64,000 nt of DNA from an uncultured Aliarcobacter sp. (GCA_963664305.2 CAXXLV010000001.1:128001-192000), one strand, 5' to 3'. Shown: positions 13,549-57,803, counted from the first letter of the stretch. A program made the numbers and translations. Notes: generated by a model not told the origin, from the letters alone.

Positions 13549-13558
13549 TATTTAGATA

Positions 13559-13715: not shown

Positions 13716-13728
13716 TCATGAAGGACTC
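13716..13728 (-). repeat. att-core-like copy of tRNA 3' segment (TCATGAAGGACTC), left island boundary
   Basis: 13-nt exact match to 57764-57776 and 57935-57947, same orientation; lies 1 nt from the pglF breakpoint. Confidence 0.72.
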
Positions 13729-13773
13729 AAGGTTACGTTCAATACCCATTTTTACGATGTCTTTAGATTTTTC

Positions 13774-13920
13774 AGTACCGTCATAGTACCGCAAAAACTG
13801 TACATTTCGTAAAATCGTGCTTCTTTTATCATGATGCCAATAATAGGACTCAAAGATAGCCTAAAAATCGTTATTTTAAAGACTTTTTTATTTTTTTGTA
13901 CCGCAAACCATACCGTAAAA
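13774..13920 (+). repeat. Two pairs of (G/A)TACCG direct repeats, integrase arm-site-like
   Basis: AGTACCGTCA/AGTACCGCAA at 13774/13785; GTACCGCAAA/ATACCGTAAA at 13898/13910. Confidence 0.6.
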
Positions 13921-14089
13921 AATAAAAAGAACAATAATTAAATATTTTTTATATATTTACTCAAATAATTATTAAAATATGAATTATACAATTAACAAGT
14001 TATCCAAATAGCTTTTTACTTATAAAATAAAATTAAAGCCCATAAAATGGACTTATCCAGTTATCTTAGTTATCCAAGCGAATATATAT

Positions 14090-15859
14090 CTACAAATTCA
14101 GCTGATGGTTAAATTCTGGAACTATCTCTTTTAATTTTGCTATTTTATTTTCACAAACTAATAACTCTTCAATTTTTTGATTTAATTCATTTATATCAAA
14201 ATTAGTAGAACTTGCAACCGTAATTGATTCATATTTTGTTTTTTGGTCACTATCATTTATCAATAACTCTTCATATAGTTTTTCACCTGGTCTTAACCCA
14301 CAAAACTCTATATTTATTTCACTTCTTCCACTTAGTTCTATCATTTTCTTAGCTAAATCAACTATCTTTATAGGTTCACCCATATCAAGAATAAATATCT
14401 CTCCACCTTTTCCAATACTTGCTGCTTGAAGCACAAGTTCGCAGGCTTCTGGAATTAACATAAAATATCTAGTAATATCTGGATGTGTTACAGTTATTGG
14501 TCCACCTGCTTCTATTTGAGCTTTAAACTTTGGAATAACACTTCCACTACTTCCTAGAACATTTCCAAATCTAACAGCAACTATTTCTGTATTTTCTGAA
14601 TCTACATTCTGAGCATATAATTCACAAACTCTTTTTGTAGTCCCCATTACGTTTGTTGGACGAACAGCTTTATCTGTTGAGATTAAAACAAATTTTTCAA
14701 CTTTGTACCTTATAGATAAATCTATACAATTTTTAGTTCCAATTATATTATTTGAAATACCTTCTAAAATATTGTGTTCAACTAAAGGTACATGTTTATA
14801 AGCAGCTGCATGAATAACTATTTGTGGTTTATATTTTTCAAAGGTTCTTTCTAAAAACTCTGTTTTTCTAACTGTTTGCATAACTGGAATTACATTTTCA
14901 TCTTTTAATTCTTCCATTATAGAATAAAGATTAAACTCACTGTGATCTAAAAGTATTAATTGTTTTGCACCATAAGATTTACATTGTCTACTTATTTCAC
15001 TTCCAATACTTCCACCAGCACCAGTTATTAGAACTACTTTATCTTTAATAAAATTTTCTATTTGATTTTTATCTAAATCTTTTGGATGCCTTGCAAGTAA
15101 ATCTTCAACTCCTATATCTTTTAACTCTTTTTTATCATTTGAAGAAGAGAGTGTATTTATTATTTTTATATCTGAAATATTTAAAGCATTTAATTTTTCA
15201 TAAATATTTATTAACTCTTTTTGAGAATAATCTTTTGAAATAATTGCTGCTTCAATACTTTTTGTTTTTATAACTTTTTTTAAATCCTCAAAATCATAAA
15301 CTTTTAGATCAAAAATATATGTATTTTTTAATATTTTACTTTCATCAATTATAGCAACAGGTGTATAATGAAAATTTTTTTTATCACAAAGTAAATTCTT
15401 AACAGTAGAATTCGCTCCAATAATCAAAGTATTTTTATATTTTGTACTTCCAGCACTTTCTAAAATAATTCTTTTTGAAAGACGTAATAGTGTAATAAAA
15501 ACTAAAGAGAGCATAAAATCTATTATTATTATACTTCTAGCAAGTGGTTGCATATTTTCTTTAAAAATCAAAAATATTATAAAAAATATAGTATAAACAA
15601 TAATATGTGCCAATAGTATCTTTTTTACTTCATGTAAAGAAAAAAATCTCCAAGCAGTTCTATAAAGCCTAAAATAGACAAAAACTAAAATTTTCATTGA
15701 AAAAAGTATTATAAAAATTGAGAAAAAATTATCGATAAAATTTGATGGTATTTGAAAATTAAATCTTAGATTATATGCTAAATAGAGCGTAAAAAGTGAA
15801 ATAATAATATCACTTAACAAAAAAAATGCTATTCTTTTTAATGGAGATGGCTTTAGCAC
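14090..15859 (-). CDS. pglF: Membrane-anchored UDP-GlcNAc 4,6-dehydratase (PglF/WbpM/CapD)
   Basis: Four N-terminal TMs; TGAGGSIGSE, HAAAYKHVP, STDKAVRPTNVMG, RFGNVLGSSGSV, GLRPGEKLYEEL. Confidence 0.93.
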   Translation of the reverse strand: MLKPSPLKRIAFFLLSDIIISLFTLYLAYNLRFNFQIPSNFIDNFFSIFIILFSMKILVFVYFRLYRTAWRFFSLHEVKKILLAHIIVYTIFFIIFLIFKENMQPLARSIIIIDFMLSLVFITLLRLSKRIILESAGSTKYKNTLIIGANSTVKNLLCDKKNFHYTPVAIIDESKILKNTYIFDLKVYDFEDLKKVIKTKSIEAAIISKDYSQKELINIYEKLNALNISDIKIINTLSSSNDKKELKDIGVEDLLARHPKDLDKNQIENFIKDKVVLITGAGGSIGSEISRQCKSYGAKQLILLDHSEFNLYSIMEELKDENVIPVMQTVRKTEFLERTFEKYKPQIVIHAAAYKHVPLVEHNILEGISNNIIGTKNCIDLSIRYKVEKFVLISTDKAVRPTNVMGTTKRVCELYAQNVDSENTEIVAVRFGNVLGSSGSVIPKFKAQIEAGGPITVTHPDITRYFMLIPEACELVLQAASIGKGGEIFILDMGEPIKIVDLAKKMIELSGRSEINIEFCGLRPGEKLYEELLINDSDQKTKYESITVASSTNFDINELNQKIEELLVCENKIAKLKEIVPEFNHQLNL

Positions 15860-15873
15860 AAAACTGTCCTTAG

Positions 15874-16446
15874 TTAATAAAGTTTTGCATTATAATCAAA
15901 AGGTGATGAAATATCATTAAAATTTAATAATTTTTTATCAGCACTAGAGAGAATTACACAGTCTTTAGGTATTTTCCAATCAATATTCAAATATTTATCA
16001 TCATATTTTATTCCAATACTTTGGTCTGGTGCAAAATATCTATCTATTTTTATATTTACAATTGCATCATTACTCAAAACTGAAAAACCATGTAAAAATC
16101 CTCTTGGAATAAATAACTGTTTTTTGTTTTCACTACTTAATTCTATTGAAATATATTTTCCAAAAGTTGGACTCCCAACTCTAAAATCAACAGCAACATC
16201 TAAGATTTTACCTTGCAAAACACTAACAAGTTTTGATTGTACATAGTTTAAAGTGTTTGTATGTAGTCCTCGTATAACTCCATATTTACTATATGAAATA
16301 TTATCTTGACAAAAATCTATACTAAAACCTAAAAGATTTTCAAAAGACTCTTTTTTATAAGATTCATATACAAAACCTCTATCATCAGAATGAATTATTG
16401 GTTCACAAACTATAATTTCTGGAATTTGAGTTCTTTTATAGTTCAT
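15874..16446 (-). CDS. rmlC: RmlC-like nucleotide-sugar epimerase (cupin)
   Basis: DDRGF, QDNIS, IRGLH, KLV, DVAVDFRVGSPTFG, GFLHGF. Confidence 0.82.
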   Translation of the reverse strand: MNYKRTQIPEIIVCEPIIHSDDRGFVYESYKKESFENLLGFSIDFCQDNISYSKYGVIRGLHTNTLNYVQSKLVSVLQGKILDVAVDFRVGSPTFGKYISIELSSENKKQLFIPRGFLHGFSVLSNDAIVNIKIDRYFAPDQSIGIKYDDKYLNIDWKIPKDCVILSSADKKLLNFNDISSPFDYNAKLY

Positions 16447-17408
16447 TATTCAAATCTTTTTTTGCTATCTACAAACTTCATACTTAATATTAGTAAAATC
16501 ATGGATAAAATAAAAGCCACAAAAATATTTGATACAAAATAAACTATTAAAAATAGTATCAAATTTAACCCAATAGAATAATTTGTAACTTTATAATGAC
16601 TCCAACCTGCTTGTGTTAATCTTTGATAAGCATGTTTTTTATGAGCTTGTGATAATCTTTCACCATTTAATTTTCTTCTAATCAAAGTCAGAGTGGCATC
16701 AAACCAATAAACTCCAAATAATATAATCCATATCCAAAAGTTTGTTGATTCTTTATTTGCATAATATATTGTGAAAATTGCTATGTTATATCCAAGAAGA
16801 GTACTTCCAACATCTCCCATAAATATTTTAGCTTTATTCCAATTCCAATATAAAAATCCTAAAACAGCAACAGATAAAACTAAAAAGTAATTTCCACCAA
16901 ATAAAACAAATCCAGCAAAAGCTAAAAATACAGCTTCACTTCCTGCATAACCATTTATTCCATCTAAAAAGTTATAAAGATTTATAAACCAAATAATCAT
17001 AAAAAATGCAAAGATATTTGTAAATATTTGATTTGATATATCAAAAACACCAAAAGTAAAAGTTTCAAATCCACCTAAAAAGTATAATCCACTAATTGCT
17101 ACTAGAGATTGGATTATTAACCTTAACTTTGGACTTAATTCATATATATCATCAAAAAAACTTATTATAGAAATAATTGCACCACATAATAATGCATAAA
17201 AAAAATTTTGCTCAATTTGATTTGTAAAAAATAGATATATTAATCCAATAAACCAAGTAAATGATATAGCTATTCCTCCACCATGTGGTGTTGGTATTGT
17301 ATGAGAACTTCTTTCATTTACTGTGGCTACTAATGATTTTTTTATCATATAGTTTTTTATAAAATATGTAAGTGAAAATGAGACTAGAAGTAGCATGATG
17401 TAAATCAT
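16446..17408 (-). CDS. MraY/WecA/WbpL-family undecaprenyl-P HexNAc-1-P transferase
   Basis: RSSH.IPTPHGGG, DD, NLYNFLDGING, IFMGDVGS, AHKKHAYQRL; polytopic. Confidence 0.9.
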   Translation of the reverse strand: MIYIMLLLVSFSLTYFIKNYMIKKSLVATVNERSSHTIPTPHGGGIAISFTWFIGLIYLFFTNQIEQNFFYALLCGAIISIISFFDDIYELSPKLRLIIQSLVAISGLYFLGGFETFTFGVFDISNQIFTNIFAFFMIIWFINLYNFLDGINGYAGSEAVFLAFAGFVLFGGNYFLVLSVAVLGFLYWNWNKAKIFMGDVGSTLLGYNIAIFTIYYANKESTNFWIWIILFGVYWFDATLTLIRRKLNGERLSQAHKKHAYQRLTQAGWSHYKVTNYSIGLNLILFLIVYFVSNIFVAFILSMILLILSMKFVDSKKRFE

Positions 17409-18607
17409 AAATTATCCATAATATTTTTTAATTTTTCTTGTATTTTATCTTCCATAAAATTGTCTTCAACAAACTTTCTACCTTTATTTGAATACTTTTC
17501 ATAAAGTTTACTATCTTCTTTTAATTTCAAAATAGCCTTTTTTAATACTTCTTCATTATCACACTTTACAACAATGCCATTATCTGATAAAGAAACCAAG
17601 TCATTTTTTATATTCGTTGCATTTATGATAGGTTTATTAGAATACAAATATTCGACTAACTTCACCGATCCTATTCCATACTTATATATTTCTATGTTAG
17701 GATTACCTTTGTACAATACGTCACATTGTGACATTAAATACATAGTTTTATTTTTTTCTAATTTACCAAAAAAATTTATATTTTTTATATTATTTTTTTG
17801 TGTAAATTCTTTTAACTCATCTAATTGTGGTCCATCTCCAACCATCAAAAAAAAGATATCTGTATTTTCTTTTAGTAAATTAGCGGCTTTTATTAAATTT
17901 ATCACACTATTTGAGTGACCAATACTACCAATATATCCTACAATAAACTTATTTTTTGGTAAATCTATATCAAATTTTTCAAGCACAAATGGAACAAATG
18001 GCTGAGGAAGATACTCTATTTTTTTATTTTTATATCCACTTTTATCTACAAATTCTTTTAAGTTATCAAGAGGAGTTATTATCAAATCACTTTGTTTATA
18101 TGCTTGAAGTTGCAAATATCTAAATACTATACTCAAAGGATTATATTTACTAACACCATTTAGTATTTGTAAAGTAAGTGGCCAAATATCTCTTTCTTCA
18201 AAAATAAATTTGCTTTTAAAATAATTTTTTATTTTTATACCATTGTATATACTAAAAGGCTGAGGAGAAGAAACCCAAATAATATCAGGCTTAACATCAA
18301 AATCTTTATAGATATTATTCAAATTCTTTGAAAATTCAAATATATTTTTTATTCTATCTAATCCATTAGCTTGATATTCTTGTGTTTTTACCCAAATATA
18401 TTTTATATCATTATGAAATTCTTCTTTATAAATATCTCTTACTTCAACTTCTTTTAGTTTTAAATGATTAAAAGAAGAAGCAAAAATTGTAACTTCATAG
18501 CCTAAATTTTTTAACATTTTTGCTATTGTATGTTGTCGAGTATGAAATCCATATCCATATGGAAAAGCGTAGTGATTTATAATCCAAATTTTTTTTTTAT
18601 TTTCCAT
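17405..18607 (-). CDS. GT4 glycosyltransferase (WbuB-like)
   Basis: WIINHYA, SSPQPF, EERDIWP, VGDGP, KLVEY; start placed at ATG 18607. Confidence 0.85.
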   Translation of the reverse strand: MENKKKIWIINHYAFPYGYGFHTRQHTIAKMLKNLGYEVTIFASSFNHLKLKEVEVRDIYKEEFHNDIKYIWVKTQEYQANGLDRIKNIFEFSKNLNNIYKDFDVKPDIIWVSSPQPFSIYNGIKIKNYFKSKFIFEERDIWPLTLQILNGVSKYNPLSIVFRYLQLQAYKQSDLIITPLDNLKEFVDKSGYKNKKIEYLPQPFVPFVLEKFDIDLPKNKFIVGYIGSIGHSNSVINLIKAANLLKENTDIFFLMVGDGPQLDELKEFTQKNNIKNINFFGKLEKNKTMYLMSQCDVLYKGNPNIEIYKYGIGSVKLVEYLYSNKPIINATNIKNDLVSLSDNGIVVKCDNEEVLKKAILKLKEDSKLYEKYSNKGRKFVEDNFMEDKIQEKLKNIMDNL

Positions 18608-19505
18608 ATTCAATTCTCTTTTTTACTTTGAGTAAATTTCTCAAATCTAAGCTCTCTAATCCCATAATTTTTTTATTATCTTCAACATCTCCTATAATTA
18701 TGGTACCAATCCCAATAGTTACATAATTTCCTATTTTAACTTTTTGAATAATACTAGAATTTGGACCAATCCAACAATTTTGTCCAATCGTTACAGAACC
18801 ACTTATCTCTACACATGCTGTTATAATGGTATTTTTACCAATTTTACAATTATGAGCTATATGAACTTGATCATCAGTTTTTACATTATTTTCAATTATT
18901 GTTGTCCCTAATGTAGCTCTTGCTATTGTATTTTTTGCCCCTATCTCTACATTATTTCCTATTATTACATTACCAATATGAGGAATTCTAACAGGAGTAC
19001 CATTTTCTTCAAAATCAAATCCAAATCCATCTTCACCTATAATTGTACCTGACTTTATATAACAACTTTTACCTATAACTGTGTTATCATAAATCACTAC
19101 ATTATTGTTCAGTACTGTACCTTCAGCTATTTTTACACTATCACCTATAATACAGTTAGATCCGATAGAAACATTTTTGGCAATCTCACAATTTTTACCT
19201 ATTTTCACACTGCTATCTATATTATAATCTATTTTTTTTATAAAAAATTCATTAACAACCTTTGCAAAGCTAAGTCTAGGATTATCAACACATATATATG
19301 AAAAAGACACATTATCATACTTTGTATCTTTTGGAAGTAAAATGAGTGATTCTACCTCTATTTTTACATTTTTAGTTTTTGAAAAACTAAAAGAATAATG
19401 TTCCAAATCATTTAATGGCTTCACATATTTTAAAACTATATTCTCACCAACTAATTCTTCATTTAAAAAGTCAGCTATCTCTTTTGCTTCTACTCGATAA
19501 CCCAT
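18597..19505 (-). CDS. LpxD-like hexapeptide N-acyltransferase
   Basis: NPRLSF, IGEDGFGF, GNVIIGNNVEIGA, VHIAHNCKIG; left-handed beta-helix repeats. Confidence 0.82.
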   Translation of the reverse strand: MGYRVEAKEIADFLNEELVGENIVLKYVKPLNDLEHYSFSFSKTKNVKIEVESLILLPKDTKYDNVSFSYICVDNPRLSFAKVVNEFFIKKIDYNIDSSVKIGKNCEIAKNVSIGSNCIIGDSVKIAEGTVLNNNVVIYDNTVIGKSCYIKSGTIIGEDGFGFDFEENGTPVRIPHIGNVIIGNNVEIGAKNTIARATLGTTIIENNVKTDDQVHIAHNCKIGKNTIITACVEISGSVTIGQNCWIGPNSSIIQKVKIGNYVTIGIGTIIIGDVEDNKKIMGLESLDLRNLLKVKKRIEYGK

Positions 19506-20128
19506 CTAATTACCTCAAAACTTTCTGCATAATGGGTACCTATTTGTATACCTCTAGTTCTAGCAAGAGAAAATATAAACTCTTCACTCATATAATCTCT
19601 TTGACCTTGTGATTTATACTCTTTTAAAGCATCACTCTTTGATTGAATATGCTTTTTGTCAAGTTTTATAAATGTTGTAGTATCAAAAGTAAGATTATTC
19701 CATATAAGTTCATATCCTAATATTGTAGTATTCTTAAAAGCTCTCAAGCCCTCTTGCGCTATTGTACTGTGGTCTTGATGTATATCGTTTAATGATGGCA
19801 TAAGTACTAAATCAGGCTTTAAATTTTTTCTATGCTTTATCAGATCTTCAAGTATCTCTTGCCTAGCATAGTTAAGCTTTCTTACTTCATAATTGTAAAT
19901 AATTACATTTTCTTTTTTAATACCTAATTTTGTTGTAGCATTTACTACTTCAATTTTAAGTATATCTTTTGGAAAACCTTCTGGTACTGAGGTTTCCGCC
20001 GTAGAAAATGCAAAATAATAAACATTTGCACCTAATTCTATAAGTTTATTTATAGTTCCACCTGCACCTAATTCTCCATCATCTGTATGGGGTGCTAATA
20101 CATATACATTTTTAAACTTATTTAACAT
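19490..20128 (-). CDS. PIG-L/LmbE family N-deacetylase
   Basis: APHTDDGELGAGG and HQDH metal-binding motifs. Confidence 0.88.
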   Translation of the reverse strand: MLNKFKNVYVLAPHTDDGELGAGGTINKLIELGANVYYFAFSTAETSVPEGFPKDILKIEVVNATTKLGIKKENVIIYNYEVRKLNYARQEILEDLIKHRKNLKPDLVLMPSLNDIHQDHSTIAQEGLRAFKNTTILGYELIWNNLTFDTTTFIKLDKKHIQSKSDALKEYKSQGQRDYMSEEFIFSLARTRGIQIGTHYAESFEVIRWVIE

Positions 20129-21185
20129 TTAATAACTCTTTTATAATATTTTCACTAGCTTTACCACCACCATATAAATCTAATTTTGAATTTTCTTTAT
20201 TAAATTCAATATTATTCTTATAAGCTTCTAATATTTTTTCTTTATCTGCCCCAATCAATGTATTTGCTCCACACTCTACCAGTTCAACCCATTCTGTTTC
20301 ATCTCTTAGAGTTATACATTGTTTTTCAAAAAAATATGCCTCTTTTTGAAGTCCTCCACTATCTGTCATCACAAAATCACAATTATCTATCAGCCATACC
20401 ATTTCAAGATAACCAATAGGTTCAATAATAGTAAGATTTTGTATATTTAATTTTAAATTTTCTAATGTTTTTTTAGTTCGTGGATGAAGTGGTAAAACCA
20501 CTTGTTTTTCTTTAGCTATTTCTTCTAATGCTTCAAATATACTTTTTAATCTAGTTTCATCTTCTGTATTTTCTGCTCTATGAATTGTACAAAGTATAAA
20601 ACTATTTTTTATTTCAATATTTGGTTTTACTGCTAGATTTTTATAAAAAATTGCTCCATCTTGCATAACATCACCACTTTTTACTATCTTACAATCAAGA
20701 TTTTCATATCCTTCATCTTTAAGATTTTGTATAGCAGTGTCTGTTGGACAAAATAACATATTACTTACTCTATCTGTAAGTATTCTATTTACTTCTTCAG
20801 GCATTTTCATATTAAAACTTCTAAGCCCTGCTTCTATGTGAGCTAGTTTTATATGAAGTTTACTTGCTACTATCGCACCAGATAATGTAGAGTTTGTATC
20901 TCCATACACCATAATCCAATCAGGTTTTTCTTTGAGTGCCACTTCTTCTATCTTTTCTATCATCTGTCCAGTCATGGCACCGTGTGATTTTCCACCAATA
21001 CCTAAAAAATAGTTTGGTTTTGGTATTTGCATCTCATCAAAAAATATATCACTCATATTTGCATCATAGTGCTGTCCCGTATGAACGATAATCTCTTCTA
21101 TCTCTTCATATTTTGCTATCTCACGACTTACGCTTCCTGCTTTTATAAATTGCGGTCTTGCACCTAGTATTGTTAGTATTTTCAT
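20118..21185 (-). CDS. wbpI: Non-hydrolysing UDP-N-acetylhexosamine(uronate) 2-epimerase (WbpI/WecB)
   Basis: [40 protein letters not shown]; wbpB/D/E in the same locus. Confidence 0.85.
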
Positions 21186-22294
21186 TTTGTCAACTCCTCA
21201 TACACTTCAAACAACTTCTTCTCTTCAACTTGCCAATTATACTTTGTAAGAACAGCTTTCTTCCCATTTTTTCCCATCTCTTCTGCTTCTTTTGGATGCA
21301 ACATAATATACTCAATAGCTTCAGATATCTCTTTTGGTTCAAGTGGGTTTACACATATACCACAACTATTCCCTTCTACTATCTCTTTCCATAGTGGAAA
21401 ATCAGAAGTGATTATAGGCAATCCTGCACTCATATATTCAAACATTTTATTTGGTTGTGCATCTATATGATTTGGTAAAGGATGAAAAGTAACTATTCCA
21501 GCTTTTGACCGACTCATCACATTTGCCACGTCATCTCTTCCTAAAAAACCAAGTTCATCTACTTTTTGCCACCCACTGTAGGCTTTTACTTCTTCTTCTA
21601 CTGATTTTTCAGAAAAAGCACCTACAAGATTGAGTTTTGTTTCACCTGTGAACTCCATGGCATGTACGACTTCTTTAATACCACGTATGTGAGCTATTCC
21701 ACCCACATAACAAACTTCATCTTTTTTCTCACTCCAAAGTGTTTCATTTGAAAGTTCATCCAAGATTGGAAAGTTATTTATATCTGTACTATTTTTATTT
21801 ATTTTTAAAAATTTATCTCTAATGTATGGTGTAGCAGTAACGATATAATCAAATTTTTTACAAGCATATTTTTCATATATTTCAAAACTATATGAGAGTG
21901 TTATTTTTGCAGGTTTATTTAAATATGGTTTTCCAAGCAACTGTTTTGGCAAATCTTCATGGGCATCAAATATCACTTTTTTACCCAACTTTTTAAGCTT
22001 CAATCCTATAGGTATAAGCTCTGGGTCATGAAGATGATATATATCGCTATCTAGCTCTTTTGCTTTTTCAAAAACCTTTTTAACAGTTTTTGTCATACGA
22101 AAAATTCTTCCACCAGTTTTTGCACCTATATCAAAAATATCTATACTATTTTTAGATTCTTCCCCTTTTCCATCTGCTACAACGAGACTAACTTTATGAT
22201 TCCCATTTTTAGCTAAAGATGTACACATTTTTAAAAATATTCTTGTATCATATCTACTATGTGCTGATGTTAGGTGTGTTATTTTAATTTGCAT
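21182..22294 (-). CDS. GT4 glycosyltransferase
   Basis: [35 protein letters not shown]. Confidence 0.88.
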
Positions 22295-22317
22295 GTATTG
22301 TCCTACTATATAAATAT

Positions 22318-23601
22318 TTATTTTTTTCTAAATTCAATTTTATTATTCTGAATATTTAATGTAATTATAACTATTATAATTATAAACAAACCATGAGTAA
22401 GTAATGTTGTAGATAAATCTGAACTAATAAAAAATGTAAATACGGATAAAAAAGCTAAACTAATTTTAATAAATTTCTCCTCTTCATTGAATATAAAATT
22501 ATTAATAATATTTAAAATAATTGTTGCAATAAGTGTATAAAGTACAATGCCTAATAATTTTGCATGTACGAATGCCATTGGAATAAATCCAATATTTAGT
22601 GAATTACCAGATATTTTTAAATAATCACCCATTAATAATGAAACTTCTTTATTAAAAGGATATGTAAAAAATGATTTTAATATTCCATTTGACCAATAAA
22701 TACTATCGATAAAGGAAAAGAAATCAAAATATGCAAAATTTAATACTGAAGGAAGGAAAACTAATCTTCTTATTAAAAAGGACATAATCCAAATATCTCT
22801 TGTCAATAAATGAATCAAAATAATACTAAAAAAAAACATTATTATTCCAAATAGTATAATTATCCTATTCCAATTGAACCTATATATAATATAAATAAAA
22901 ATTACTAAAAACATACTAAGAAAAATACTTTTGTATCCTGTAAATAAGTAAAATATTAGAAATATTGATATTGAGAATAACATCATATAATAATTCTTTT
23001 TTAATAGTGCCCATGAAAAAACAAACACCATAAAAACTTTAAAAACCCAATTATTTATATAACCAAAAATTCCTTTATTAGTAAGATCACTAAATTTTTC
23101 TCTAAAATCATATACTTCTCTTATATCAACTACAAAATTACCTTTGGTAACATATATTATATGTATTAAAACAACAATTATAATTATAAAACTAAATAAT
23201 AATATATATTTTGGAGATATTTTTATTTTAACTAACTTGTTTATATCATAGTTTTTAGTAAAAACTAGTATCAAAATATAAGGTATTAACAAATAAAATA
23301 AATATTTTATACTTATATTAGTATAACTAAAATATACAATATTTGGTAAGATATATAAAAAATATAAAAATACAAAAATAGTAAATATCCTCAAATCTTT
23401 TTTATATAATAAAATCATATAAATACCTAAAGCTAAAATCCATCCTAAAATGTAATCTATTAAATTAAAATTTATTTTATAGAGATTACTGATGTTAATT
23501 CTTATAGATATTAAGTAGTAGGCATATTCAAAAATCAGCTTTAATATTATAACCAAAAATACTTCATAAATTTTTGATATTTGTAAATTACTAATTTTCA
23601 T
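22318..23601 (-). CDS. wzy: Polytopic membrane protein, probable Wzy polymerase
   Basis: About 10-12 hydrophobic segments, extremely AT-rich, adjacent to flippase. Confidence 0.6.
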
Positions 23602-24874
23602 AATTATCTGCTTTATAAACTACAGAAAAGATTATATATAAATATATCATATATAATAAAAATTGATGTATAGTATAATACTTAAGAAATAAATATAATT
23701 CAAATTTATTATAATAAGATATAGAAAAAAAAACAATACTAGTACACAAATATAAATATTGCCAAATTGCTAATAATTTAAGTTTATTATAACTTACTAA
23801 AGAAATACTGATTGTTGATACTACAAAAGTGACAAAAAAACTTATTGCTAAATACTTGCTTATTTCACCAGATATAATCCAATTTTCCCCAAAAATAATT
23901 TCAAAAGTAATAGGTGCAAATAAATAAATTGCTATCGATATAGGTAAAGATATAATTATTAACTTTTTAAATGTACTTATAAGGAGGGGTAAATTCTTTT
24001 TATTATTTTTTATATTCTGAGATACTTCATGAAAAAAAACTTGTGATATTGAATTTGCCATTAAAGAACTTGGTAAATATACAATTCTTTGAGCAAAAAA
24101 GAAATAACCAGAAATTGATAAATCAAATATTTTTGGTATCATAAAAAATGGTATTTGAGTAGTTATATTATTTGATAAAGTAGAAAATAAATTATATCTT
24201 GGAAAATTTTTATATTTCTTTGCTAAAATTATAATCTTTATTATTGATATTTTGGAAATTAAAACTCTATCTTTTAATATATTTTTTAAAAGCTTCATAT
24301 TTGCAAACATATTTGAAAACAATTGACCTAAAATAAGTCCACTAGCTCCTAGTTTTATAAATCCAATACTTAATTGAAAGATAGCTAAAACAATAGATTT
24401 TAAAATAGTTGCATTTCTTAAATCTTTATAATTCTTTTTTCTATTATTAAAATAGTTTAAAATATTATACAGACCACTAAAAAATATAGCAATAGGTATA
24501 AAATATAACCAAAAACTTATTTCTGTATTTCCCAAAATAGAAGAAAAATAATCATTAAATATTAGAATAATAATAAATAGAAAAATAGATATAACACAAG
24601 TTATAATGAAACCTAAAGCAAATATATTTATAGCATCTTCATCTTTTTTTGGTAACATAATAGCTAATTCATATCTTCCATTAACAATATTTCCCAACAT
24701 AGATATAATTGCTATAAATAATGCAAATATTCCAAAATCTTCTGGTGTATATATTCTTGCAAGTATTGGACTAATCGCTATTGGTATTGCTTGAGCAATA
24801 GCCGTACCTGTCATAAGAGTAACTATATTTTTACTAAATTCTGATTTAATTTTTATCATTTGTTCTTTGTTCAT
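23591..24874 (-). CDS. wzx: Wzx oligosaccharide flippase
   Basis: GTAIAQAIPIAISPILARIYTPEDFG, RYELAI, KYKNFP; about 12 TMs; start could be 24859. Confidence 0.88.
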   Translation of the reverse strand: MNKEQMIKIKSEFSKNIVTLMTGTAIAQAIPIAISPILARIYTPEDFGIFALFIAIISMLGNIVNGRYELAIMLPKKDEDAINIFALGFIITCVISIFLFIIILIFNDYFSSILGNTEISFWLYFIPIAIFFSGLYNILNYFNNRKKNYKDLRNATILKSIVLAIFQLSIGFIKLGASGLILGQLFSNMFANMKLLKNILKDRVLISKISIIKIIILAKKYKNFPRYNLFSTLSNNITTQIPFFMIPKIFDLSISGYFFFAQRIVYLPSSLMANSISQVFFHEVSQNIKNNKKNLPLLISTFKKLIIISLPISIAIYLFAPITFEIIFGENWIISGEISKYLAISFFVTFVVSTISISLVSYNKLKLLAIWQYLYLCTSIVFFSISYYNKFELYLFLKYYTIHQFLLYMIYLYIIFSVVYKADNYEN

Positions 24875-27004: not shown

Positions 27005-27060
27005 ATTTCTCCCTTATTTACTAAAAGATTTAATTATATAACAAATAGGCTTTTAATAAT

Positions 27061-31290: not shown

Positions 31291-31309
31291 TCATTTTCCT
31301 ATTTTAAAC

Positions 31310-36739: not shown

Positions 36740-36772
36740 AAACTTTCCTATTTAATCTTGATAAGTAATTTT

Positions 36773-36816
36773 ATTTAAAAATAAGTTTATTTTAATACCC
36801 AAACTTATTTTTAAAT
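36773..36816 (-). terminator. Hairpin closing the Pse block
   Basis: ATTTAAAAATAAGTTT / AAACTTATTTTTAAAT perfect 16-bp arms. Confidence 0.6.
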
Positions 36817-36831
36817 TAATGTAGCATAGAA

Positions 36832-39117: not shown

Positions 39118-39119
39118 TA

Positions 39120-39833: not shown

Positions 39834-39891
39834 CTAATCCCCCGTATAAATTTATATAATAACATAAACTCTATTAAAATTTATTATTATT

Positions 39892-40830: not shown

Positions 40831-40831
40831 C

Positions 40832-43733: not shown

Positions 43734-43734
43734 T

Positions 43735-46466
<2,732 letters not shown>

Positions 46467-46517
46467 TTAAAATTAAACCTTATTTGAGATATTAGAAATG
46501 AATTTATCATTTTTATT

Positions 46518-48533: not shown

Positions 48534-48535
48534 CT

Positions 48536-49630
48536 TTATAAATTCTCAACAATATATTCTATTTCCTCATCTGTTAAATAAGGATTCATAGGTAAACTCA
48601 TGATTTCGTTTGACACATCTTCAGAAATTGGGAAATCACCTTTTTTATAGCCAAGATATTCAAAACACTCTTGTAAATGTAATGGCATTGGATAATGCAC
48701 TGCTGTTGGAATCTCAGCAAGTTTTAATTTTTCTTGTAAATTATCTCTATTTTTTAATCTTACAGAGTATTGAGCCCAAGCAGATGTAGCCTTTTCATCT
48801 ACAAATGGAAGTACTAAATTTGCTTTAGATTCTAATGCTTTTGTATATTTAGAAGCTACTTCTTGTCTTAAAGCCAAATCTTTTGGATAATATTTTAGTT
48901 TTACATTTAAAACAGCTGCTTGTATAGTATCAAGCCTTCCACCCATTCCTATATATTTATGATGGTATCTTTTTGATTGACCATGAAGTCTCAAACTTTT
49001 CATTTTAATTGCTATTTCTTCATCATTTGTAAAAACAGCTCCTCCATCTCCATAGCACCCAAGAGGTTTTGCAGGGAAAAATGAAGTTGTTGATATATCA
49101 CCTAAATTAGAATCCATAATTCCACCATAAGTACTTCCAAAACTTTGAGCACCATCTATTATTACTTTTAAGTTGTGTTTTTTAGCAATTTCACTTATTT
49201 TATCTATACCAGCTGGTTGCCCGTAAAGTGATACAGGAATTATTGCTTTTGTTTTAGGTGTTATTTTTTCTTCTATTAAATCAGGATTTATATTGTAAGT
49301 TTTCTCATCAATATCAACAAATACAGGAGTTGCTCCTAAAAATGCTATTGTTTCAGCAGTTGCAATAAAGGTAAATGGTGTAGTTATTACTTCATCTCCT
49401 GGTTTTATATCAAGTGCCATCATAGCAAGTAATAATGCATCTGTACCATTACTACAAGATACAGCATATTTTACACCTGTAAATTCTTCAAGATTCTTTT
49501 CTAACTCTTGAACTTCATTTCCCATAATAAAGTTACAATTTCTAGCAACTTTTAAAATTGCTTCTTCTATCTCATCTTTATATAATTCATGTTGATAGTG
49601 TAAGTTTGCAAAATCAATCTTCATTTTCAC
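48536..49630 (-). CDS. wbpE: DegT/DnrJ aminotransferase WbpE/WlbC
   Basis: [28 protein letters not shown]; follows wbpB-wbpD. Confidence 0.88.
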
Positions 49631-50205
49631 TCTTCTATTAAAATTAAATTATCATTTTCTATTTTATATTTACTATTATCAAAGCTATCAATAGCAATAT
49701 TACTTTCATCAAATTTTAAAGTATTTCCAGCTTTTGAAACCCAACCAATTTGACGTGCAGGAACTCCTACCATAAGGGCATATGGCTTAACATCTTTATT
49801 TACAACTGTTCCACTTCCAATAAGAGCATATTCACCAATAGTTACACCACAAACAATAGTTGCATTTGCTCCAATAGAACATCCTTTTTTAAGAATTGTT
49901 TTTTTAAACTCTTCACGTCTAACAATAAATGCTCTTGGATTTGTAACGTTCGTAAAAACCATTGAAGGTCCTAAAAATACATCATCTTCTACTTTTACAC
50001 CTTCGTAAATAGATATATTGTTCTGAACCTTTACACCATTTCCAATATTTACTTTAGGTCCAACAACGCAGTTTTGTCCAAAAGAACAATTACTTCCAAT
50101 ATTTGAACCACTTAAAATATGTGAAAAATGCCATATTTTAGTATCATCCCCAATAATTACATTATCATCTACATAAGATGACTCGTGAGCAAAATAAGAA
50201 GCCAT
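49627..50205 (-). CDS. wbpD: Hexapeptide N-acetyltransferase WbpD/WlbB
   Basis: [29 protein letters not shown]. Confidence 0.9.
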
Positions 50206-51173
50206 TAGATTAATACCTTTTTACAGAAAGGATGATATTCCCCATTTAATCCAAGAGGAGTTAGTTTTCTAATAACTGAAACAATATTTATAGAATTTCT
50301 AGCTTCCTCAAGTCCGAATCCACCACCATTTAAGATATGTTCATAAGATCTTGTATGTAAATCTGTAAATCCTTCTGAGAATTCAAACTCTTCACCATCA
50401 ACTGTTATACTTCTAAAAGTTGTTTTTCCACTAGCTTTTATATCTTCTGGAATATAATTGTAATTTACACTTAAAAACCATCTTACATTTGCATTTTTAA
50501 GTTTCATAAATCCTGCATTTGCATCTGCTTCTTTTAAATGAACAATATTTTCCTCTATAGGTCCAAATATCCAAGATAACATATCAAAAAAGTGAACACC
50601 AATATTTGATGCAATTCCACCTGATTTTGCTTCATCACCTTTCCAAGAAACAAAGTACCATTTTCCTCTACTTGTAAGATAAGTTAAATCTATATCATAA
50701 ACTTTATTTGGATTTTGTTCTAATTCTTTTGCTATTTTTTCTTTTAATGCAATGATTGAATCATGAAGTCTTAGTTGTAAAATATTATAAACCTTTTTAC
50801 CAGTTTCTTCTTCTATTATTTTTAATTGATCGATATTATGTGGATTTAAAACTAATGGTTTCTCACATATTGCATGAGCACCATTTTTAAGTGCAAATCT
50901 TATATGAGAATCATGTAAATAATTTGGAGTTGTAATTCCAATATATTCTATTTTTTTATTACCATCTCTATGCCATTTATCAACAAATCTATCAAATCTT
51001 TCAAACTCAGTAAAAAAATGAGCTTGTGGAAAGTTACTATCCATTATTCCAATACCATCATAAGGATCAAGAGCAGCAACTAAATCATTCCCTGTTTCTT
51101 TTATCGCTTTCATATGTCTTGGTGCAATATATCCTGATGCACCTATAAGTGCAAAATTCTTTTTATTTGGCAT
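50205..51173 (-). CDS. wbpB: UDP-GlcNAcA 3-dehydrogenase WbpB/WlbA
   Basis: [42 protein letters not shown]; start at 51173 after GGGAG. Confidence 0.9.
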
Positions 51174-51174
51174 T

Positions 51175-52422
51175 TTATAATCTCCCATCGCTATCTTTTA
51201 AAATACCTTTGATATCATAAATAACTTGATTTTCATTTTCAAAAGTTAAAGTTTTATATTTATCATGTGATACTGCCATCACAACTGCTTCATAATCATC
51301 GAAATTAACATCATTATCTAAATTTAAATTATATTCATGTCTTACTTCTTCTTTATCTGCCCAATAATCTGACACAGTAATATCACATCCAAATTCTTTC
51401 AATTCTTCTATTACATCAATTACTCTACTATTTCTTATATCAGGACAATTTTCTTTAAAAGTAATTCCAAGAACCAATACCTTTGAACCTTCTATCTTAT
51501 GACCTTTTTTTATCATAAGTTTTATAACCTGATTTGCTACATAAATTCCCATATTATCATTTAATCGTCTTCCAGCTAGAATAATTTCAGGGTTATAACC
51601 TATACTTTGAGCTTTATGAGTTAAATAGTATGGATCAACACCAATACAGTGTCCTCCTACAAGACCTGGTCTAAATGGTAAAAAGTTCCATTTTGTTCCA
51701 GCAGCTGCTAACACATCATTTGTATTGATTCCAAGTTTATTAAAAATGATTGCTAATTCATTTACAAAGGCTATATTTATATCTCTTTGAGAGTTCTCTA
51801 TAACTTTTGCAGCTTCTGCAACTTTTATAGTAGGTGCTAAATGAGTACCTGCTGTTATAATACTAGCATATAGTTCATTCACTTTTTTACCAATTTCAGG
51901 GGTACTTCCTGATGTTACTTTAAGTATTTTAGTTACAGTATGTTCTTTGTCTCCTGGATTAATTCTTTCTGGACTATATCCACAGAAGAAATCAATATTA
52001 AAAGTCAATCCTGAAAATTTCTCTAGAACGGGAACACAGTCTTCTTCTGTAGCTCCTGGATAAACAGTTGATTCGTAGATAACAATATCATCTTTTTTAA
52101 GCACTTTTCCTATCGTTTCACTAGCTTTTATAAGAGGAGTTAAATCTGGTCTTTTATTTTTATCTATTGGTGTTGGAACGGTTACTATGTAAATATTACA
52201 GTCTTCTATATCTTTTGTATCAAGAGTAAATTTCATACCATTTTTTATAGCTTCTTTTACTTGATTTTCTGATAATTCTAAAGTTCTATCATAACCACTC
52301 GACAATTCATCAATTCTCCATTTTGATATATCAAATCCTACTACTTGATATTTTGAAGAAAATGCATGAGCTAGAGGAAGCCCAACATATCCAAGACCTA
52401 TTACACAAATTTTATTTCCCAT
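51175..52422 (-). CDS. wbpO: UDP-N-acetylhexosamine 6-dehydrogenase (WbpO/TviB)
   Basis: Same motifs as 12074-13318; start at 52422 after AAGGAG. Confidence 0.9.
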
Positions 52423-52423
52423 T

Positions 52424-53458
52424 TTATTTAACTCCTTTAATATCATTTATATACCAATTCAAAGATTCTTTTAATCCATCTTCTAAACAATGCGTAGGTT
52501 CATATCCTAAAAGCTTTTTTGCTTGATCTATATTTGCATTCGAATGCCTTATATCTCCAACTCTAAAATCTCTATAAATCGCATCCTTGATTTTTAATTC
52601 TGGTAATTTTTCTTCTAAACCTTTTTTTATTGCACTAAAAAGATTATTTAAAGTTTCTCTGCCACCTGCAGCTATATTATAGGCTTTCGCAAAAGCTTCA
52701 GTATTTGTTGTGATTCCGGCTAATATATTTGCCTGAACAACATTATCAATATATGTAAAATCTCTACTTGTCTCACCATCTCCATTTATAAAAACATCTT
52801 CATTGTTTAACATAGAAGATATCCACTTTGGCATTACAGCAGCATACGCACCATTTGGATCCTGTCTTTTTCCAAAAACATTAAAATATCTAAGTCCTAT
52901 TGATTCAAATCCATAACACTTATAAAAAACACCCATATAAAGTTCATTTACATATTTGGTAACTGCATAAGGAGATAATAAATTTCCAGTTTTATTTTCT
53001 ATTTTCGGTAATTCTAAACTATCTCCATAAACTGAAGAGCTAGAAGCGTAAACAAATCTTTTTACGCCATTATCTTTAGAAGCTGTAAGCATATTTAAAA
53101 ATCCACTTACATTTGAAGCATTCGAATTTATTGGATTATCTATTGATCTAGGAACAGAACCAAGTGCTGCTTGATGAAGGACAATATCTATATTCTTTGT
53201 TATTTCAACACAAGTGTTATAATTTGTAATGTCACCTTCTAGAAAATTAAAATTATTCCATTGTTCTTTTGATATAGAATTTTTTACATGTTCTAAATTG
53301 TGTTTATATCCAGTCGAAAAATTATCAAGCCCAACTACTTTTTGATTTAATTGTAAAAGTGTTTCAATTAAATTCGAACCAATAAATCCCGCACAACCTG
53401 TAATTAACCATGTTTGTGGATTTTCTACTAGTTTTTGTTTTATCTCATTATATCTCAT
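52424..53458 (-). CDS. wbpP: UDP-GlcNAc(A) 4-epimerase (WbpP/TviC)
   Basis: [42 protein letters not shown]. Confidence 0.9.
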
Positions 53459-53469
53459 TATATCTCATT
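53441..53469. repeat. 10-bp tandem repeat x3 (TATCTCATTA) at the galE/wbpP junction
   Basis: Directly visible; third copy ends in C instead of A. Confidence 0.9.
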
Positions 53470-54495
53470 CTTCTTACTTTTATACCCATCTGGATTATTG
53501 CTTTGCCATCTATAGCTATCAACACACATATCTTCCAAACTTCTTTCTGCTTTCCATCCAAGTACTTCTTTTGCATAAGATGGATTTGCATAACAAGTTG
53601 CTATATCTCCTGCTCTTCTATCTACTATTTTATATGGAATTTTTTTTTCACTTACTTTTTCAAAAGTTTTTACCATATCAAGTACACTATAACCTATTCC
53701 TGTTCCTAAATTTACTATTAATGGTTTCATTATATCTTTTGAGTTTAAATAATCTATTGCTTTTACATGTCCATTTGCCAAATCAACTACATGGATATAA
53801 TCTCTCACACCTGTTCCATCATGTGTATCATAATCTGTTCCTAAAATATTTAAATATTCTCTTTTTCCAACAGCTACTTGAGAAATATATGGCATTAGAT
53901 TATTTGGTATTCCATTTGGCTCTTCACCTATCAGTCCACTTTCATGTGCTCCAACTGGATTAAAGTATCTTAAAATTACAATTTTAAAAGAGTTATCTGA
54001 AAGATATAAATCTTTTAAAATTCTTTCTATCATATATTTACTTGTACCATATGGATTTGTTGTATTTCCTATTGGAAAATCTTCTTTTATAGGATTAGAT
54101 TTAGGATTTCCATATACAGTTGCTGAACTTGAAAAAACTATTTTTTTACAATTAAATTCTTTCATAACTTCAAGAAGTCTAATAGTTCCAACAATATTAT
54201 TATCATAATATTCTAAAGGTTTTTCTACTGATTCTCCAACAGCTTTTAATCCAGCAAAGTGGATAACAGAATCTATATCATATTTCTCAAATACTTTTTT
54301 TAAAAGTTCTTTATCTCTTATATCACCCTCTTCTAAAGAAATAGATTTATTTATAATTTTTTCTACTCTTTTAATACTTTCTTTTGAAGAATTTGATAAA
54401 TTATCATACACTACAAAATCATAACTCGCTTCACTTAAAGCAATAAGAGTATGAGAACCTATATATCCAGCTCCACCTGTTATTAATATAGACAT
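53458..54495 (-). CDS. galE: UDP-glucose 4-epimerase
   Basis: [43 protein letters not shown]. Confidence 0.95.
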
Positions 54496-54549
54496 TTATT
54501 TAACTCTTTATTTTGCAATGTATTTTCCTAATTAAAATTTTAGTTGGAT

Positions 54550-54558
54550 ATTATATCA
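54550..54558 (-). promoter_or_regulatory. Extended -10 promoter (TGATATAAT) of the glycan operon
   Basis: TGnTATAAT about 55 nt upstream of galE. Confidence 0.6.
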
Positions 54559-55076
54559 AATCAAATTACTCTTTTTTGACTTTTTTTAATCAAAAAAGTA
54601 ATTCAGATCTAAATCTCAATTAAATCTTATTTATTGTGTATTTTTGTAACTTTTGTGATTTATAGTTAATATTGTATTCAAATAATGCTGATAATTTGGT
54701 TATTTTTTATATTTATCTCAGACTTTATAAAAATAAAATTAGAGATAAATAGCTAATTATAATTACAATAAAAATTCAATGTAATATATCAAATTCCATT
54801 TTCATAGATTTATTTATCCTACAATAAAATATAATAATATAACACAAAAGACTCATAAAAGACTTTCTTTTCATTTTTTATATGAGATTAAATAAAAATT
54901 TTATCCAATAATTGTTACTTGTTTCACAAAAAAAGTTATTTATCAATCATTTTGTAGTTATAATTTAACTTTAATGACTCAAAAAATGGAGAAATGCAAC
55001 ATAAAAAGATGGAATATGAAACTATAAAAAACCCTAAAACTCCACAAAAAAGACTATAAAAAAATCACCTCAATTT

Positions 55077-56786: not shown

Positions 56787-57116
56787 TTAAAACTCTTTAT
56801 CTAAAATTGGATCTAATTGATTTTCAATAATGATAAGTTTATTGATTAGATTTTTATAGTTATAAGAATCAAGTTTTTTTAATTGGATTGAATAATTTAA
56901 TCCATGAGTTAATTGATTAATGTTTGTACCAATTTTATTTATATTCCAAATTAACTCTTTTATATCTTTTTTATTTGATGGTTTTACATTAATATTTGAA
57001 GATTCAATATATTTAATTAAAAACTGTGTGCTATTCATATTAAGAGCTTTTGCTTTAAAATCAAGTAATTGTTTTTGTTGTTGTGATAATCTAAATTTAA
57101 ACATTTTATCTTGCAT
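56787..57116 (-). CDS. mobC: MobC ribbon-helix-helix relaxosome accessory protein
   Basis: FKFRLS...KAKALNMNSTQFL RHH; INKIGTNINQL signature. Confidence 0.88.
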   Translation of the reverse strand: MQDKMFKFRLSQQQKQLLDFKAKALNMNSTQFLIKYIESSNINVKPSNKKDIKELIWNINKIGTNINQLTHGLNYSIQLKKLDSYNYKNLINKLIIIENQLDPILDKEF

Positions 57117-57258
57117 TAAAATCCTTTACACATTTGAAAGTTAGTAAGACCCTCAAAGACCAACTGATTTGGTTTAAGACCTAGACACAACTTACTTAAG
57201 ATTCCATATGTCTTGATTGTCCATTTTTTGTCTTATTTTTGATACATTCTTCTTCCTT
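57117..57258. other. Candidate oriT
   Basis: Non-coding, immediately upstream of mobC; phased AAGACC repeats, inverted TGTCTT copies and an ACCAA/TTGGT hairpin. Confidence 0.5.
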
Positions 57259-57528
57259 TTATTTTAAATCTAAAAGTTCCTTTGCTTTATCTGTTGAGAT
57301 TACCTCACCTGTTTCTAATCTAGCTACTAAACCATCTTCTTCTAGTTTCTTAACAAATCTAGACACAACTGGCTGTGCTAAAGTTAATCCAAAACTTATC
57401 TCTGTGATTTTCTTAGCTCCATGGTCTATTAAATAACACATAATAGCTATATCTCTTACTGTTGCTCTTGGGTCATACTCTTTATCTAGTCTCTGACATA
57501 AAACTAATAACTCCCTTGCCTTCATCAT
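57259..57528 (-). CDS. Small MarR-like winged-helix DNA-binding protein
   Basis: ITEISFGLTLAQPVVSRFVKKLEEDGLVAR HTH-wing pattern; AAGGAG RBS. Confidence 0.78.
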   Translation of the reverse strand: MMKARELLVLCQRLDKEYDPRATVRDIAIMCYLIDHGAKKITEISFGLTLAQPVVSRFVKKLEEDGLVARLETGEVISTDKAKELLDLK

Positions 57529-57692
57529 AATATTCTCCTTTATTATAAAAATGAAAGTAATATTAAAAAATAGTGACTTAAAATTAAATAGAAAAGGATT
57601 GTTTTTGTATTTAAGGGAATTCGGTAATTGTTAAAAAGATTGTATTTTAATATTAAAAAGTTATTGTTTTTGGAAATAAGCTCTGATTGATT

Positions 57693-57712
57693 TTTGTACT
57701 CGCATTTGTACT
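57693..57712 (+). repeat. TTTGTACT x2 (12-bp period), arm-site-like
   Basis: Directly visible about 50 bp inside the att copy. Confidence 0.55.
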
Positions 57713-57757
57713 TTCGGATTTTCCGTTTTAGAAAAACCTTCAAGAAGCTCGATTTTA

Positions 57758-57803
57758 TGGTGGTCATGAAGGACTCGAACCTTCGACCACTCGGTTATGA
57801 GCC
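57758..57803 (-). repeat. 46-bp duplicate of the tRNA 3' half (att site)
   Basis: Identical to 57928-57974 except one deleted G; spans anticodon loop to CCA. Confidence 0.93.

Follow-up and report, generated by a model that had tools for sequence, protein, structure and literature searches.

A probable composite and decayed island array carrying a surface-glycan locus at a tRNA-Met gene of an uncultured Aliarcobacter sp.

We analyzed a 64,000-nucleotide stretch of DNA from an uncultured Aliarcobacter sp. (GCA_963664305.2 CAXXLV010000001.1:128001-192000; hereafter the window) in which 46 kb, including a complete surface-glycan locus, lies between a tRNA-Gly and a tRNA-Met gene. We read these 46 kb as a composite and decayed island array at a tRNA-Met integration hot spot and give this reading a probability of about 0.65. 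The first layer would be an island of the P4-integrase type whose far end survives as a 13-mer attachment (att) core with its P' arm (13716-13811) and whose cargo would be the glycan locus plus a relaxase/MobC stump of a mobilizable-element backbone. The second layer, from another element family using the same tRNA, would consist of a MarR-gene fragment with its terminus and a 171-bp scar (a 47-nt repeat plus 124 bp). The elements would have accumulated as one after another integrated at the 3' end of the tRNA gene, and later deletions in this lineage would have taken the integrase, backbone genes, and the probable origin of transfer (oriT).

The source genome (G000; 2,780,884 bases) was compared with 43 congeners, each species being represented by a single genome, and wider DNA comparisons included 184 genomes of the family. 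Genome-wide searches of G000 covered all but positions 80001-88000 of contig 1 (8 kb read as N, about 40 kb upstream of the window).

Ends and proposed layers of the inserted DNA

In 19 of the 43 congeners the tRNA cluster ending in tRNA-Gly directly abuts tRNA-Met-tRNA-Ser-pyrF, and the entire 46 kb between the two tRNA genes in G000 is therefore inserted DNA, as the original prediction had proposed for most of it. The junction holds 22 to 44 kb in five congeners (G011, G013, G003, G002, and G006), its anchors are more than 80 kb apart in six, and it is split over contigs or missing in 13. Eleven junctions were checked at the sequence level, and the spacers in those that were read ranged from 4 nt (G010) to about 80 nt. 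All genomes with an insertion at the junction have also kept the ~70-nt native spacer beside tRNA-Gly, and the flank on the tRNA-Met/tRNA-Ser side is conserved in 42 of the 44 genomes, including G000. Presence and absence of the inserted DNA thus alternate exactly at the tRNA 3' end, the pattern of a tRNA-integrated island. The G+C content was flat across the region, with no step.

The 13-mer TCATGAAGGACTC occurs at 13716, in a duplicate of the tRNA 3' end (57764), and in tRNA-Met itself (57935), always on the plus strand. These are its only copies on either strand of the genome, so the genome-wide commonness that had been feared for it did not materialize. With up to one mismatch allowed, 0.02 matches were expected, and none of 100 shuffles reached three. 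Across the genus, TCRTGAAGGACTC is present in 29 of the 44 genomes, as a single copy in the tRNA in 21 and in more than one copy in eight; extra copies that share the contig of the tRNA are always on its strand. The reversed pattern, used as a control, gave four matches over all 44 genomes.

The 361 nt following the left 13-mer are unique in G000 and recur over their full length in G011 (87% identity), where the 13-mer again precedes them, about 100 nt from tRNA-Gly. In G038, the stretch recurs only from position 84 on. Its last 278 nt (13812-14089) accompany pglF in both G011 and G038, the locus of the latter lying beside tRNA-Leu, and because G038 has this tail without the core, the tail belongs to pglF and not to the att site. 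What remains is a core followed in both G000 and G011 by 44 nt and then CAGTACCGT(C/T)ATAGTACCGCAAAAAC. The far end of the integrase-bearing G009 island has the same layout, with a tRNA-end copy, 43 nt, and CAGTACCGT repeats, so that arm-type repeats stand at an almost identical distance from the core in all three. The doublet seen in G000 and G011 is also found ahead of integrase genes, both in G009 and in a metagenome-assembled genome of Arcobacter, and a scan of genome contigs for the arm doublet returned three loci, two of them Arcobacter integrase arms and one an unrelated Lacrimispora match. The only cluster of arm motifs in the G000 genome is the one at 13786/13898; no second one was found there. 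The direct repeat of the tRNA 3' end at the far end is 13 nt in G000 and G011, with TCGKCC in place of the acceptor bases, and about 22 nt, including TGGTGG, in the canonical G009 site. From core, arm, and spacing together, we take the left 13-mer and its GTACCG repeats to be a genuine attachment site of a P4-type integrase.

The right end is different. The duplicate of the tRNA 3' end is exact over 42 nt (57762-57803) and extends to 47 nt from 57757 with one missing G. The core is present here, but only degenerate GTAC repeats stand 40 to 65 nt away, nearer to the core than canonical arm sites are and within a segment that has no homologues. Of the paired GTAC repeats that had been predicted at the two ends, both words exist, each unique in the genome (TTTTGTACCGCA at 13894 and TTTTGTACTCGCA at 57692), but the right words are degenerate, and the right end has no canonical P arm. 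Among the approximately 150 matches listed from the 184 family genomes, none covered the segment with the MarR/ArsR-like gene; all were confined to the tRNA-derived part. The MarR/ArsR-like protein itself had only three homologues, all on metagenome contigs.

The affinities of the right end lie with a second family of elements. At 80 to 81% identity, the G000 repeat together with the initial ~55 nt of the 124-bp spacer resembles the elements of G016 and G039 at their repeat-adjacent end. Second copies of the tRNA end of similar length are found in G039, G007, G015, and G016, and they bound islands of 47 kb in G039 and 19 kb in G007. At its repeat-distal end, the G039 island encodes an integrase that lacks an arm-binding domain, and the island also holds restriction, Abi, Rep, and ParA genes. 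About 17 nt to the left of the G000 repeat resemble the tRNA-proximal terminus of a G039-type element, a short and weak match. The 47-nt repeat and the 124 bp thus look like the scar of a deleted element of this family, whose repeats are about 47 to 49 bp, and the MarR segment looks like a fragment of another of its members. Since the repeat and the MarR segment resemble this other family, the 13-mers at 13716 and 57764 are probably not the two ends of one element, as had been proposed, but noncognate ends.

Immediately outside the left site, alignment and the Pfam and NCBIfam searches confirmed a 3' stump of pglF and a second wbpO gene (wbpO#2). The original prediction regarded them as what was left of a resident locus that the island had replaced, but both lie inside the inserted DNA, and the commoner home of such loci is a different site (S2, described below) that is empty in G000. 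The stump (~13553-13714) matches the 3' end of the full-length pglF (14090-15859) with about 93% identity, and the homology is lost at 13715, one base ahead of the 13-mer. The wbpO#2 gene shares 91% identity with an orphan wbpO that G011 has at a different place in its chromosome and 75% with the wbpO of the island itself. None of the 43 relatives has wbpO#2 adjoining the stump; matches to the one were always separate from matches to the other. We read them as a fragment of another cassette, the pglF gene of which may have been truncated by illegitimate or pseudo-site recombination at the stump/13-mer junction. Comparing the junction for a pseudo-att site or microhomology (pglF TTTTGTTTTTTGGTC versus G011 AAAAGTTTTTAGGTC) left it without explanation. 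G011 also has a pglF 3' duplicate, of about 170 nt, that ends at the same pglF position as the G000 stump and is joined to different DNA. Between this duplicate and the full pglF of G011 is an AAA_14 ATPase gene (L011:16905-18095), flanked by a direct duplication of about 220 nt (48 nt of tail plus 174 nt of pglF) such as a Campbell-type insertion would leave.

Table 1. Features of the tRNA-Gly/tRNA-Met region (window positions)
Feature	Position	Strand	Remarks
tRNA cluster Gln-Thr-Met-Met-Gly	11482..11941	-	Left chromosomal anchor; ARAGORN
Remnant of native tRNA-Gly/tRNA-Met spacer, ~70 nt	11942..12013	.	Homologous to the spacer of empty-site genomes, e.g., G014
wbpO#2, intact TviB/WbpO-like UDP-GlcNAc 6-dehydrogenase gene	12074..13318	-	Pfam and NCBIfam
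pglF 3' stump, last ~54 codons only	13553..13714	-	Alignment to 14090-14257; no open reading frame covers the stump
13-mer att core, identical to part of the tRNA-Met T stem/acceptor	13716..13728	+	Equivalent position conserved in G011
P'-type arm	13729..13811	+	Arm-type repeats CAGTACCGTCATAGTACCGCAAAAAC (13773-13798)
Downstream tail of pglF	13812..14089	+	Second GTACCGCAA at 13898
O-antigen/lipooligosaccharide-type glycan locus, 35 genes	14090..54495	-	Open reading frames, Pfam
Promoter region of the glycan locus	54496..55076	.	Contiguous with the relaxase gene at its 3' end
Putative relaxase, 569 aa	55077..56786	-	Conserved Tyr/His residues, AlphaFold2 model, Foldseek
NikA/MobC-like relaxosome accessory gene	56787..57116	-	PF21983, E value of 2.2e-9
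Orphan segment with 89-aa MarR/ArsR-like gene (57259-57528)	57128..57756	-	Degenerate GTAC repeats (57692-57716)
Copy of the tRNA-Met 3' end, 47 nt	57757..57803	+	Holds the second 13-mer
Spacer, 124 bp	57804..57927	.	Candidate scar of an otherwise deleted element
tRNA-Met(CAT) (57928-58004) and tRNA-Ser (58011-58101)	57928..58101	-	Integration target and right chromosomal anchor; ARAGORN

Mobilization genes and the G011 counterpart

Analysis of open reading frames (ORFs) and Pfam domains confirmed that the interval between the 13-mers holds a MarR-like gene, mobC, a relaxase candidate, and the 35-gene glycan locus, with no integrase, type IV secretion system (T4SS), or Rep domain among its ORFs. 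The 569-aa protein gives only a weak LPD7 match in Pfam; there is no relaxase match in Pfam or NCBIfam, and the PDB sequence profile of the relaxase family gave zero matches. Its Tyr15 and a cluster of His117, His133, and His135 are invariant in 22 aligned homologues. The AlphaFold2 model of residues 1 to 260 has a mean predicted local distance difference test score of 83, and the 11 best Foldseek matches to it in the PDB are all relaxase domains (MobM, MobA, TrwC, and TraI), the best with an E value of 1.3e-3 and none at or below 1e-3. The protein has 139 homologues in Arcobacter and Aliarcobacter, most of them named hypothetical and two named for a relaxase domain. With its predicted HUH-type fold and Tyr/His motif, we call it a relaxase with moderate confidence, moderate because Pfam, NCBIfam, and PDB-sequence matches are missing. 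The adjoining NikA/MobC-like gene has no NCBIfam match.

Close copies of the relaxase are found in 12 of the 184 family genomes, G000 included. The pair with MobC is surrounded by BREX, AbiE, and arsenic-type genes in G010 and by restriction and helicase genes downstream of tRNA-Leu in G009. Small conserved genes, one of them ParA-like, neighbor the pair in G010, G009, and G011, and a DnaB-like helicase accompanies it in G009 and G011. G011 (L013:3494-3578), G010 (L067), and G009 (L071) share a conserved region of about 85 nt that contains two hairpins and precedes mobC; it is about 0.5 kb upstream in G011, where it is 92% identical to that of G009, and it is the probable oriT of this relaxase family. 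Homology of G000 to these three backbones ends at the mobC start codon (57126/57127), and the hairpin region has no match anywhere in the G000 genome. The relaxase/MobC pair of G000 therefore appears to be the stump of a larger backbone that has lost its presumed oriT in cis, and the complete relaxase-MobC-oriT module that had been proposed would no longer be there.

The helper functions that such an element would need were likewise absent from the searched genome. The eight tyrosine-recombinase matches in G000 all lie outside the window. Arm-DNA-bind_3 (PF13356) had no match in the genome, a tblastn search with three G011 integrases found none, and a homologue of one of these (int1) is present in 32 of the 43 congeners and missing from G000. 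The helper integrase predicted to sit beside matching GTACY repeats was thus not found: the searched genome has no P4-type integrase and no other arm cluster. The same outcome befell the predicted conjugation functions, since neither the VirB4 family (PF03135) nor the coupling-protein family (PF02534) had a match in the genome.

The sister island in G011 has what G000 lacks. Its interval contains two P4-type integrases, one of which (403 aa, with Arm-DNA-bind_3, central, and catalytic domains) is directly beside tRNA-Met, and between this gene and the tRNA are six GTACYGCAA-type repeats, three per strand. Integrases 56 to 57% identical to this one adjoin the same tRNA in G009 and G040. The two islands share the left end described above and, with 81 to 89% identity, the galE-promoter-relaxase-MobC junction; galE with its promoter is 81 to 87% and the genes on the pglF side are 87 to 93% identical. 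The center of the glycan locus is unrelated; it measures 36 kb in G000 but 16 kb in G011, and the two have nothing in common. The prediction that relatives would carry different cassettes between the same ends thus held in G011 for the left end and the relaxase/MobC junction. Since the shared island segments (81 to 93%) and the flanking core genome (92%) have similar identities, the data fit residence of the island before the G000 and G011 species split. Within the promoter region, conservation extends over 54505-54974 in G011 and over no more than 54505-54715 in G038, which has no mobilization genes there.

Chromosomal sites of the glycan locus and competing readings

The glycan locus of G000 encodes pglF, an rmlC-like gene, two GT4-family initiating transferases, Wzx-like and Wzy-like proteins, and many glycosyltransferases, followed by nonulosonic-acid genes, an ATP-binding cassette (ABC) exporter, WbpA/B/D/E-like genes, and galE. 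Polysacc_synt_3 and Glycos_transf_4 (two copies) exceeded their Pfam cut-offs, as expected of a Wzx/Wzy-type cluster, and the Wzy_C match was weak (26.2 bits against a cut-off of 31.7). The initiating transferase genes are at 16446-17408 and 26009-27004 and the ABC exporter is at 44721-46466. With both Wzx/Wzy-like genes and an ABC exporter, the locus may be two pathways fused end to end.

Loci of this type occupy several chromosomal sites in the genus. S2 is an intergenic site free of tRNA genes (between 1223442 and 1223443 on G000 contig 2; L088 position 1144), where the 3' end of pglF abuts the chromosome in eight genomes. Of these, G010, G033, G042, G001, and G030 have an empty tRNA-Gly/tRNA-Met junction, G003 and G013 have a 22-kb insert there, and G019 is the eighth. 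The borders at S2 are precise, directly after the stop codon of the last cassette gene. Inserts ending in pglF measure 21 to 42 kb in six complete genomes; that of G010, the only one read through, is 25.5 kb with galE and pglF. In G000, G002, and G006, S2 is contiguous and thus empty, and the pglF locus is at the tRNA junction. G011 likewise has the locus at the junction, with only the orphan wbpO at S2. In G038 both S2 and the junction are empty and the locus stands directly downstream of tRNA-Leu(gag), with no direct tRNA-Leu repeats around it. Since S2 is occupied in eight relatives and empty in G000, a locus replaced in the G000/G011 lineage was more plausibly at S2. A wbpO-like gene is also found 18 to 39 kb to the left of the tRNA cluster in G001, G010, G022, G023, G029, G032, G033, G038, and G042, which suggests a further glycan locus there; G000 has signaling genes instead (window positions 572-11391).

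The original prediction took the exchange of cassettes for a site-specific process. A conserved pglF side and galE around an unrelated center are, however, the classical pattern of homologous replacement, and the variation between cassettes seems to be ordinary exchange of this kind, with recombination between the conserved genes at the ends. The glycan centers of G000 and G011 would have diverged in this way. As a separate question, we give about even odds to the glycan locus having arrived at the junction as cargo of the P4-type island.

Four points weigh against the layered array as we propose it. The bases to the left of the left 13-mer are TCGTCC in G000 and TCGGCC in G011 rather than the acceptor end TGGTGGG, so displacement of a tRNA end cannot by itself account for the left site. 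The glycan locus stands at the junction in G002 and G006 without any att remnant, and the att site could therefore be a bystander and not the vehicle. The 8 kb of contig 1 read as N could hide a gene. Finally, with one genome per species, recent gain or loss within a species is invisible.

A second reading, which we consider rather unlikely, is that the glycan locus was never mobile cargo and moves by transformation and recombination, while the att site, mobilization genes, and repeats are unrelated debris at the same tRNA. The pglF-terminated loci with precise borders at the tRNA-free S2 speak for it, as do G002 and G006, the defense rather than glycan genes carried by the same relaxase backbone in G010 and G009, and the pglF tail that is found without a core in G038. 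However, bringing a 25- to 45-kb locus to a new site without flanking homology requires a nonhomologous mechanism, and two of the alternative sites lie immediately downstream of tRNA genes. Moreover, neither G000 nor G011 has an element boundary between the att arm and pglF or between the relaxase gene and the glycan promoter.

Equally doubtful in our estimation is a reading in which a complete O-antigen-type locus became, in the G000/G011 lineage, cargo of a relaxase-bearing P4-integrase island at tRNA-Met, the ~44-kb interval of G011, with its integrase and both att sides intact, can still be excised and mobilized, the cassette moves as one site-specific unit, and the older S2 locus could thereby be lost.

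The single element of the original prediction, with 13716-57776 as a nonautonomous, att-flanked unit carrying a relaxase and oriT and swapping serotype cassettes with integrase and conjugation supplied in trans, is improbable. In its favor are the same-oriented 13-mers found nowhere else in the genome, the genuine core and arm at the left end, the relaxase-fold protein with its NikA/MobC-like partner, and the different glycan genes of G011 between the same left end and mobilization junction; att-flanked elements that lack an integrase and are moved along by an incoming relative are known, and work on accretion and cis-mobilization is cited in a published review (PMC5812530). Against this, the right repeat and MarR segment resemble a different element family, the right end has no canonical P arm, the probable oriT upstream of mobC is gone, and searches of the genome turned up neither a cognate integrase nor VirB4 or a coupling protein. 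The island also seems older than the G000/G011 split, and a metagenome scan for the left-end pattern returned zero further copies.

To regard the 13-mer at 13716 as a coincidence, with the GTAC words as mere AT-rich noise, is scarcely credible. In favor of this are the short length of the match, 13 nt, and flanking bases that differ from the tRNA on both sides. Against it, the 13-mer is found nowhere else in the genome but in the tRNA and the duplicate, G011 has it together with the arm, the stump breaks off at it, its spacing to the arm repeats is that of a canonical site, and the reversed-pattern control gave four matches in 44 genomes; conservation and geometry exclude chance for this site.

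On the layered array that we favor, the G000 region would now simply be an O-antigen/lipooligosaccharide-type locus, and excision or transfer from this genome is not expected. We would treat the G000 island as a fossil and a chimera of two or more element families, to be annotated as a decayed island array and not as an active element.

Relation to known systems and other insertions at tRNA genes

Surface-glycan loci set serotype, phage sensitivity, and immune recognition, and changes in them are usually ascribed to homologous replacement at a fixed chromosomal site. Here, a single genus has the same type of locus at several alternative sites, and in two species it lies within an att-bounded interval beside mobilization genes. 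If the intact G011 version does excise, it would provide a clear example, in Campylobacterota, of an entire serotype cassette on an integrative mobilizable platform.

Replacement of O-antigen and capsule cassettes proceeds by homologous recombination between conserved flanking genes, such as wbpM/pglF-type ends. The conserved pglF side and galE around the unrelated centers of G000 and G011, and the precise borders at S2, resemble this process; unlike in that process, the locus shifts its chromosomal position between species and is att bounded in two of them. Salmonella pathogenicity island 7 (SPI-7) of Salmonella enterica carries the Vi capsule locus as cargo and has a tRNA gene as its target. 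It resembles our region as a surface-polysaccharide locus, with a TviB-type dehydrogenase, in an integrative element at a tRNA gene, but it has its own integrase and conjugation genes, and its sequence and host are unrelated. The same tRNA-end insertion, a short tRNA-end repeat, arm repeats near the core, stacking of elements at one tRNA, and loss of the integrase by deletion are seen in tRNA islands with P4-type tyrosine integrases, which include arrays that grew by tandem accretion and then decayed by deletion. G000 differs from these in its repeat of only 13 nt without the acceptor-end part, the absence of an integrase (present in the G011 counterpart), a whole glycan locus as cargo, and two ends seemingly from different families. 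SPI-7 is listed as a member of the integrative and conjugative element (ICE) family in an ICE review (PMC5812530), which also defines integrative mobilizable elements (IMEs). Like IMEs and cis-mobilizable elements, G000 has a relaxase and an accessory protein without a T4SS, and the backbones of G011, G010, and G009 resemble IMEs in their ParA-like and DnaB-like helicase genes and, in G011, integrase genes. G000, in contrast, retains only the relaxase and MobC, with no integrase of its own, no probable oriT, and a right att site that is probably noncognate in place of a matching pair, so the defining parts of either class do not all appear to be present.

Keyword searches of the literature, which are no proof of absence, returned no report of an O-antigen locus on a mobilizable island in Arcobacter. 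In the passages of the Arcobacter butzleri genome paper that describe it, the hypervariable O-antigen region is not linked to the integrase islands of that genome (PMC2147049). Those passages also describe small islands with terminal integrases in strain RM4018, including one situated at a tRNA-Leu 3' end (PMC2147049).

The sequences aligned to the region were metagenome contigs only, which cannot show excision. One contig crosses the 13715/13716 junction, another agrees over 13716-14064 and then diverges leftward for 18 nt, and one weak joint connects 12013 to 14095 (26 nt on the shorter side). A relaxase-based search of genome contigs for related loci confirmed none of 296 pattern matches.

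Other insertions were seen at the same and at other tRNA genes. The 22-kb block at the G013 junction (L028/L029) contains a two-component system, an RND (resistance-nodulation-division) efflux pump, a Cu-type P-ATPase, FeoB, and an ABC transporter, with no integrase and no tRNA-end repeat in it; G003 (L030/L031) has an insertion of similar size at this junction. In G002 and G006 (L032-L035), the tRNA-Met-tRNA-Ser-pyrF-nusB-ribH block (window positions 57924-59766) is inverted relative to the tRNA-Gly cluster, and in G002 it is inverted relative to kdsA too. tRNA-Leu(gag) is another hot spot, with a defense island on the relaxase backbone downstream of it in G009 (L069-L071) and the glycan locus downstream of it in G038 (L015). 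In G011 (L041 and L011), the tRNA cluster is interrupted between tRNA-Thr and the first tRNA-Met by another island, of 17.5 kb. This island carries a 15-nt repeat of that tRNA-Met's 3' end (TGGTGTCAAGAGAGG), and an arm doublet, CCGTACTGCTACTGGTACTGCT, follows some 70 nt farther in; a 361-aa ORF adjoins the tRNA.

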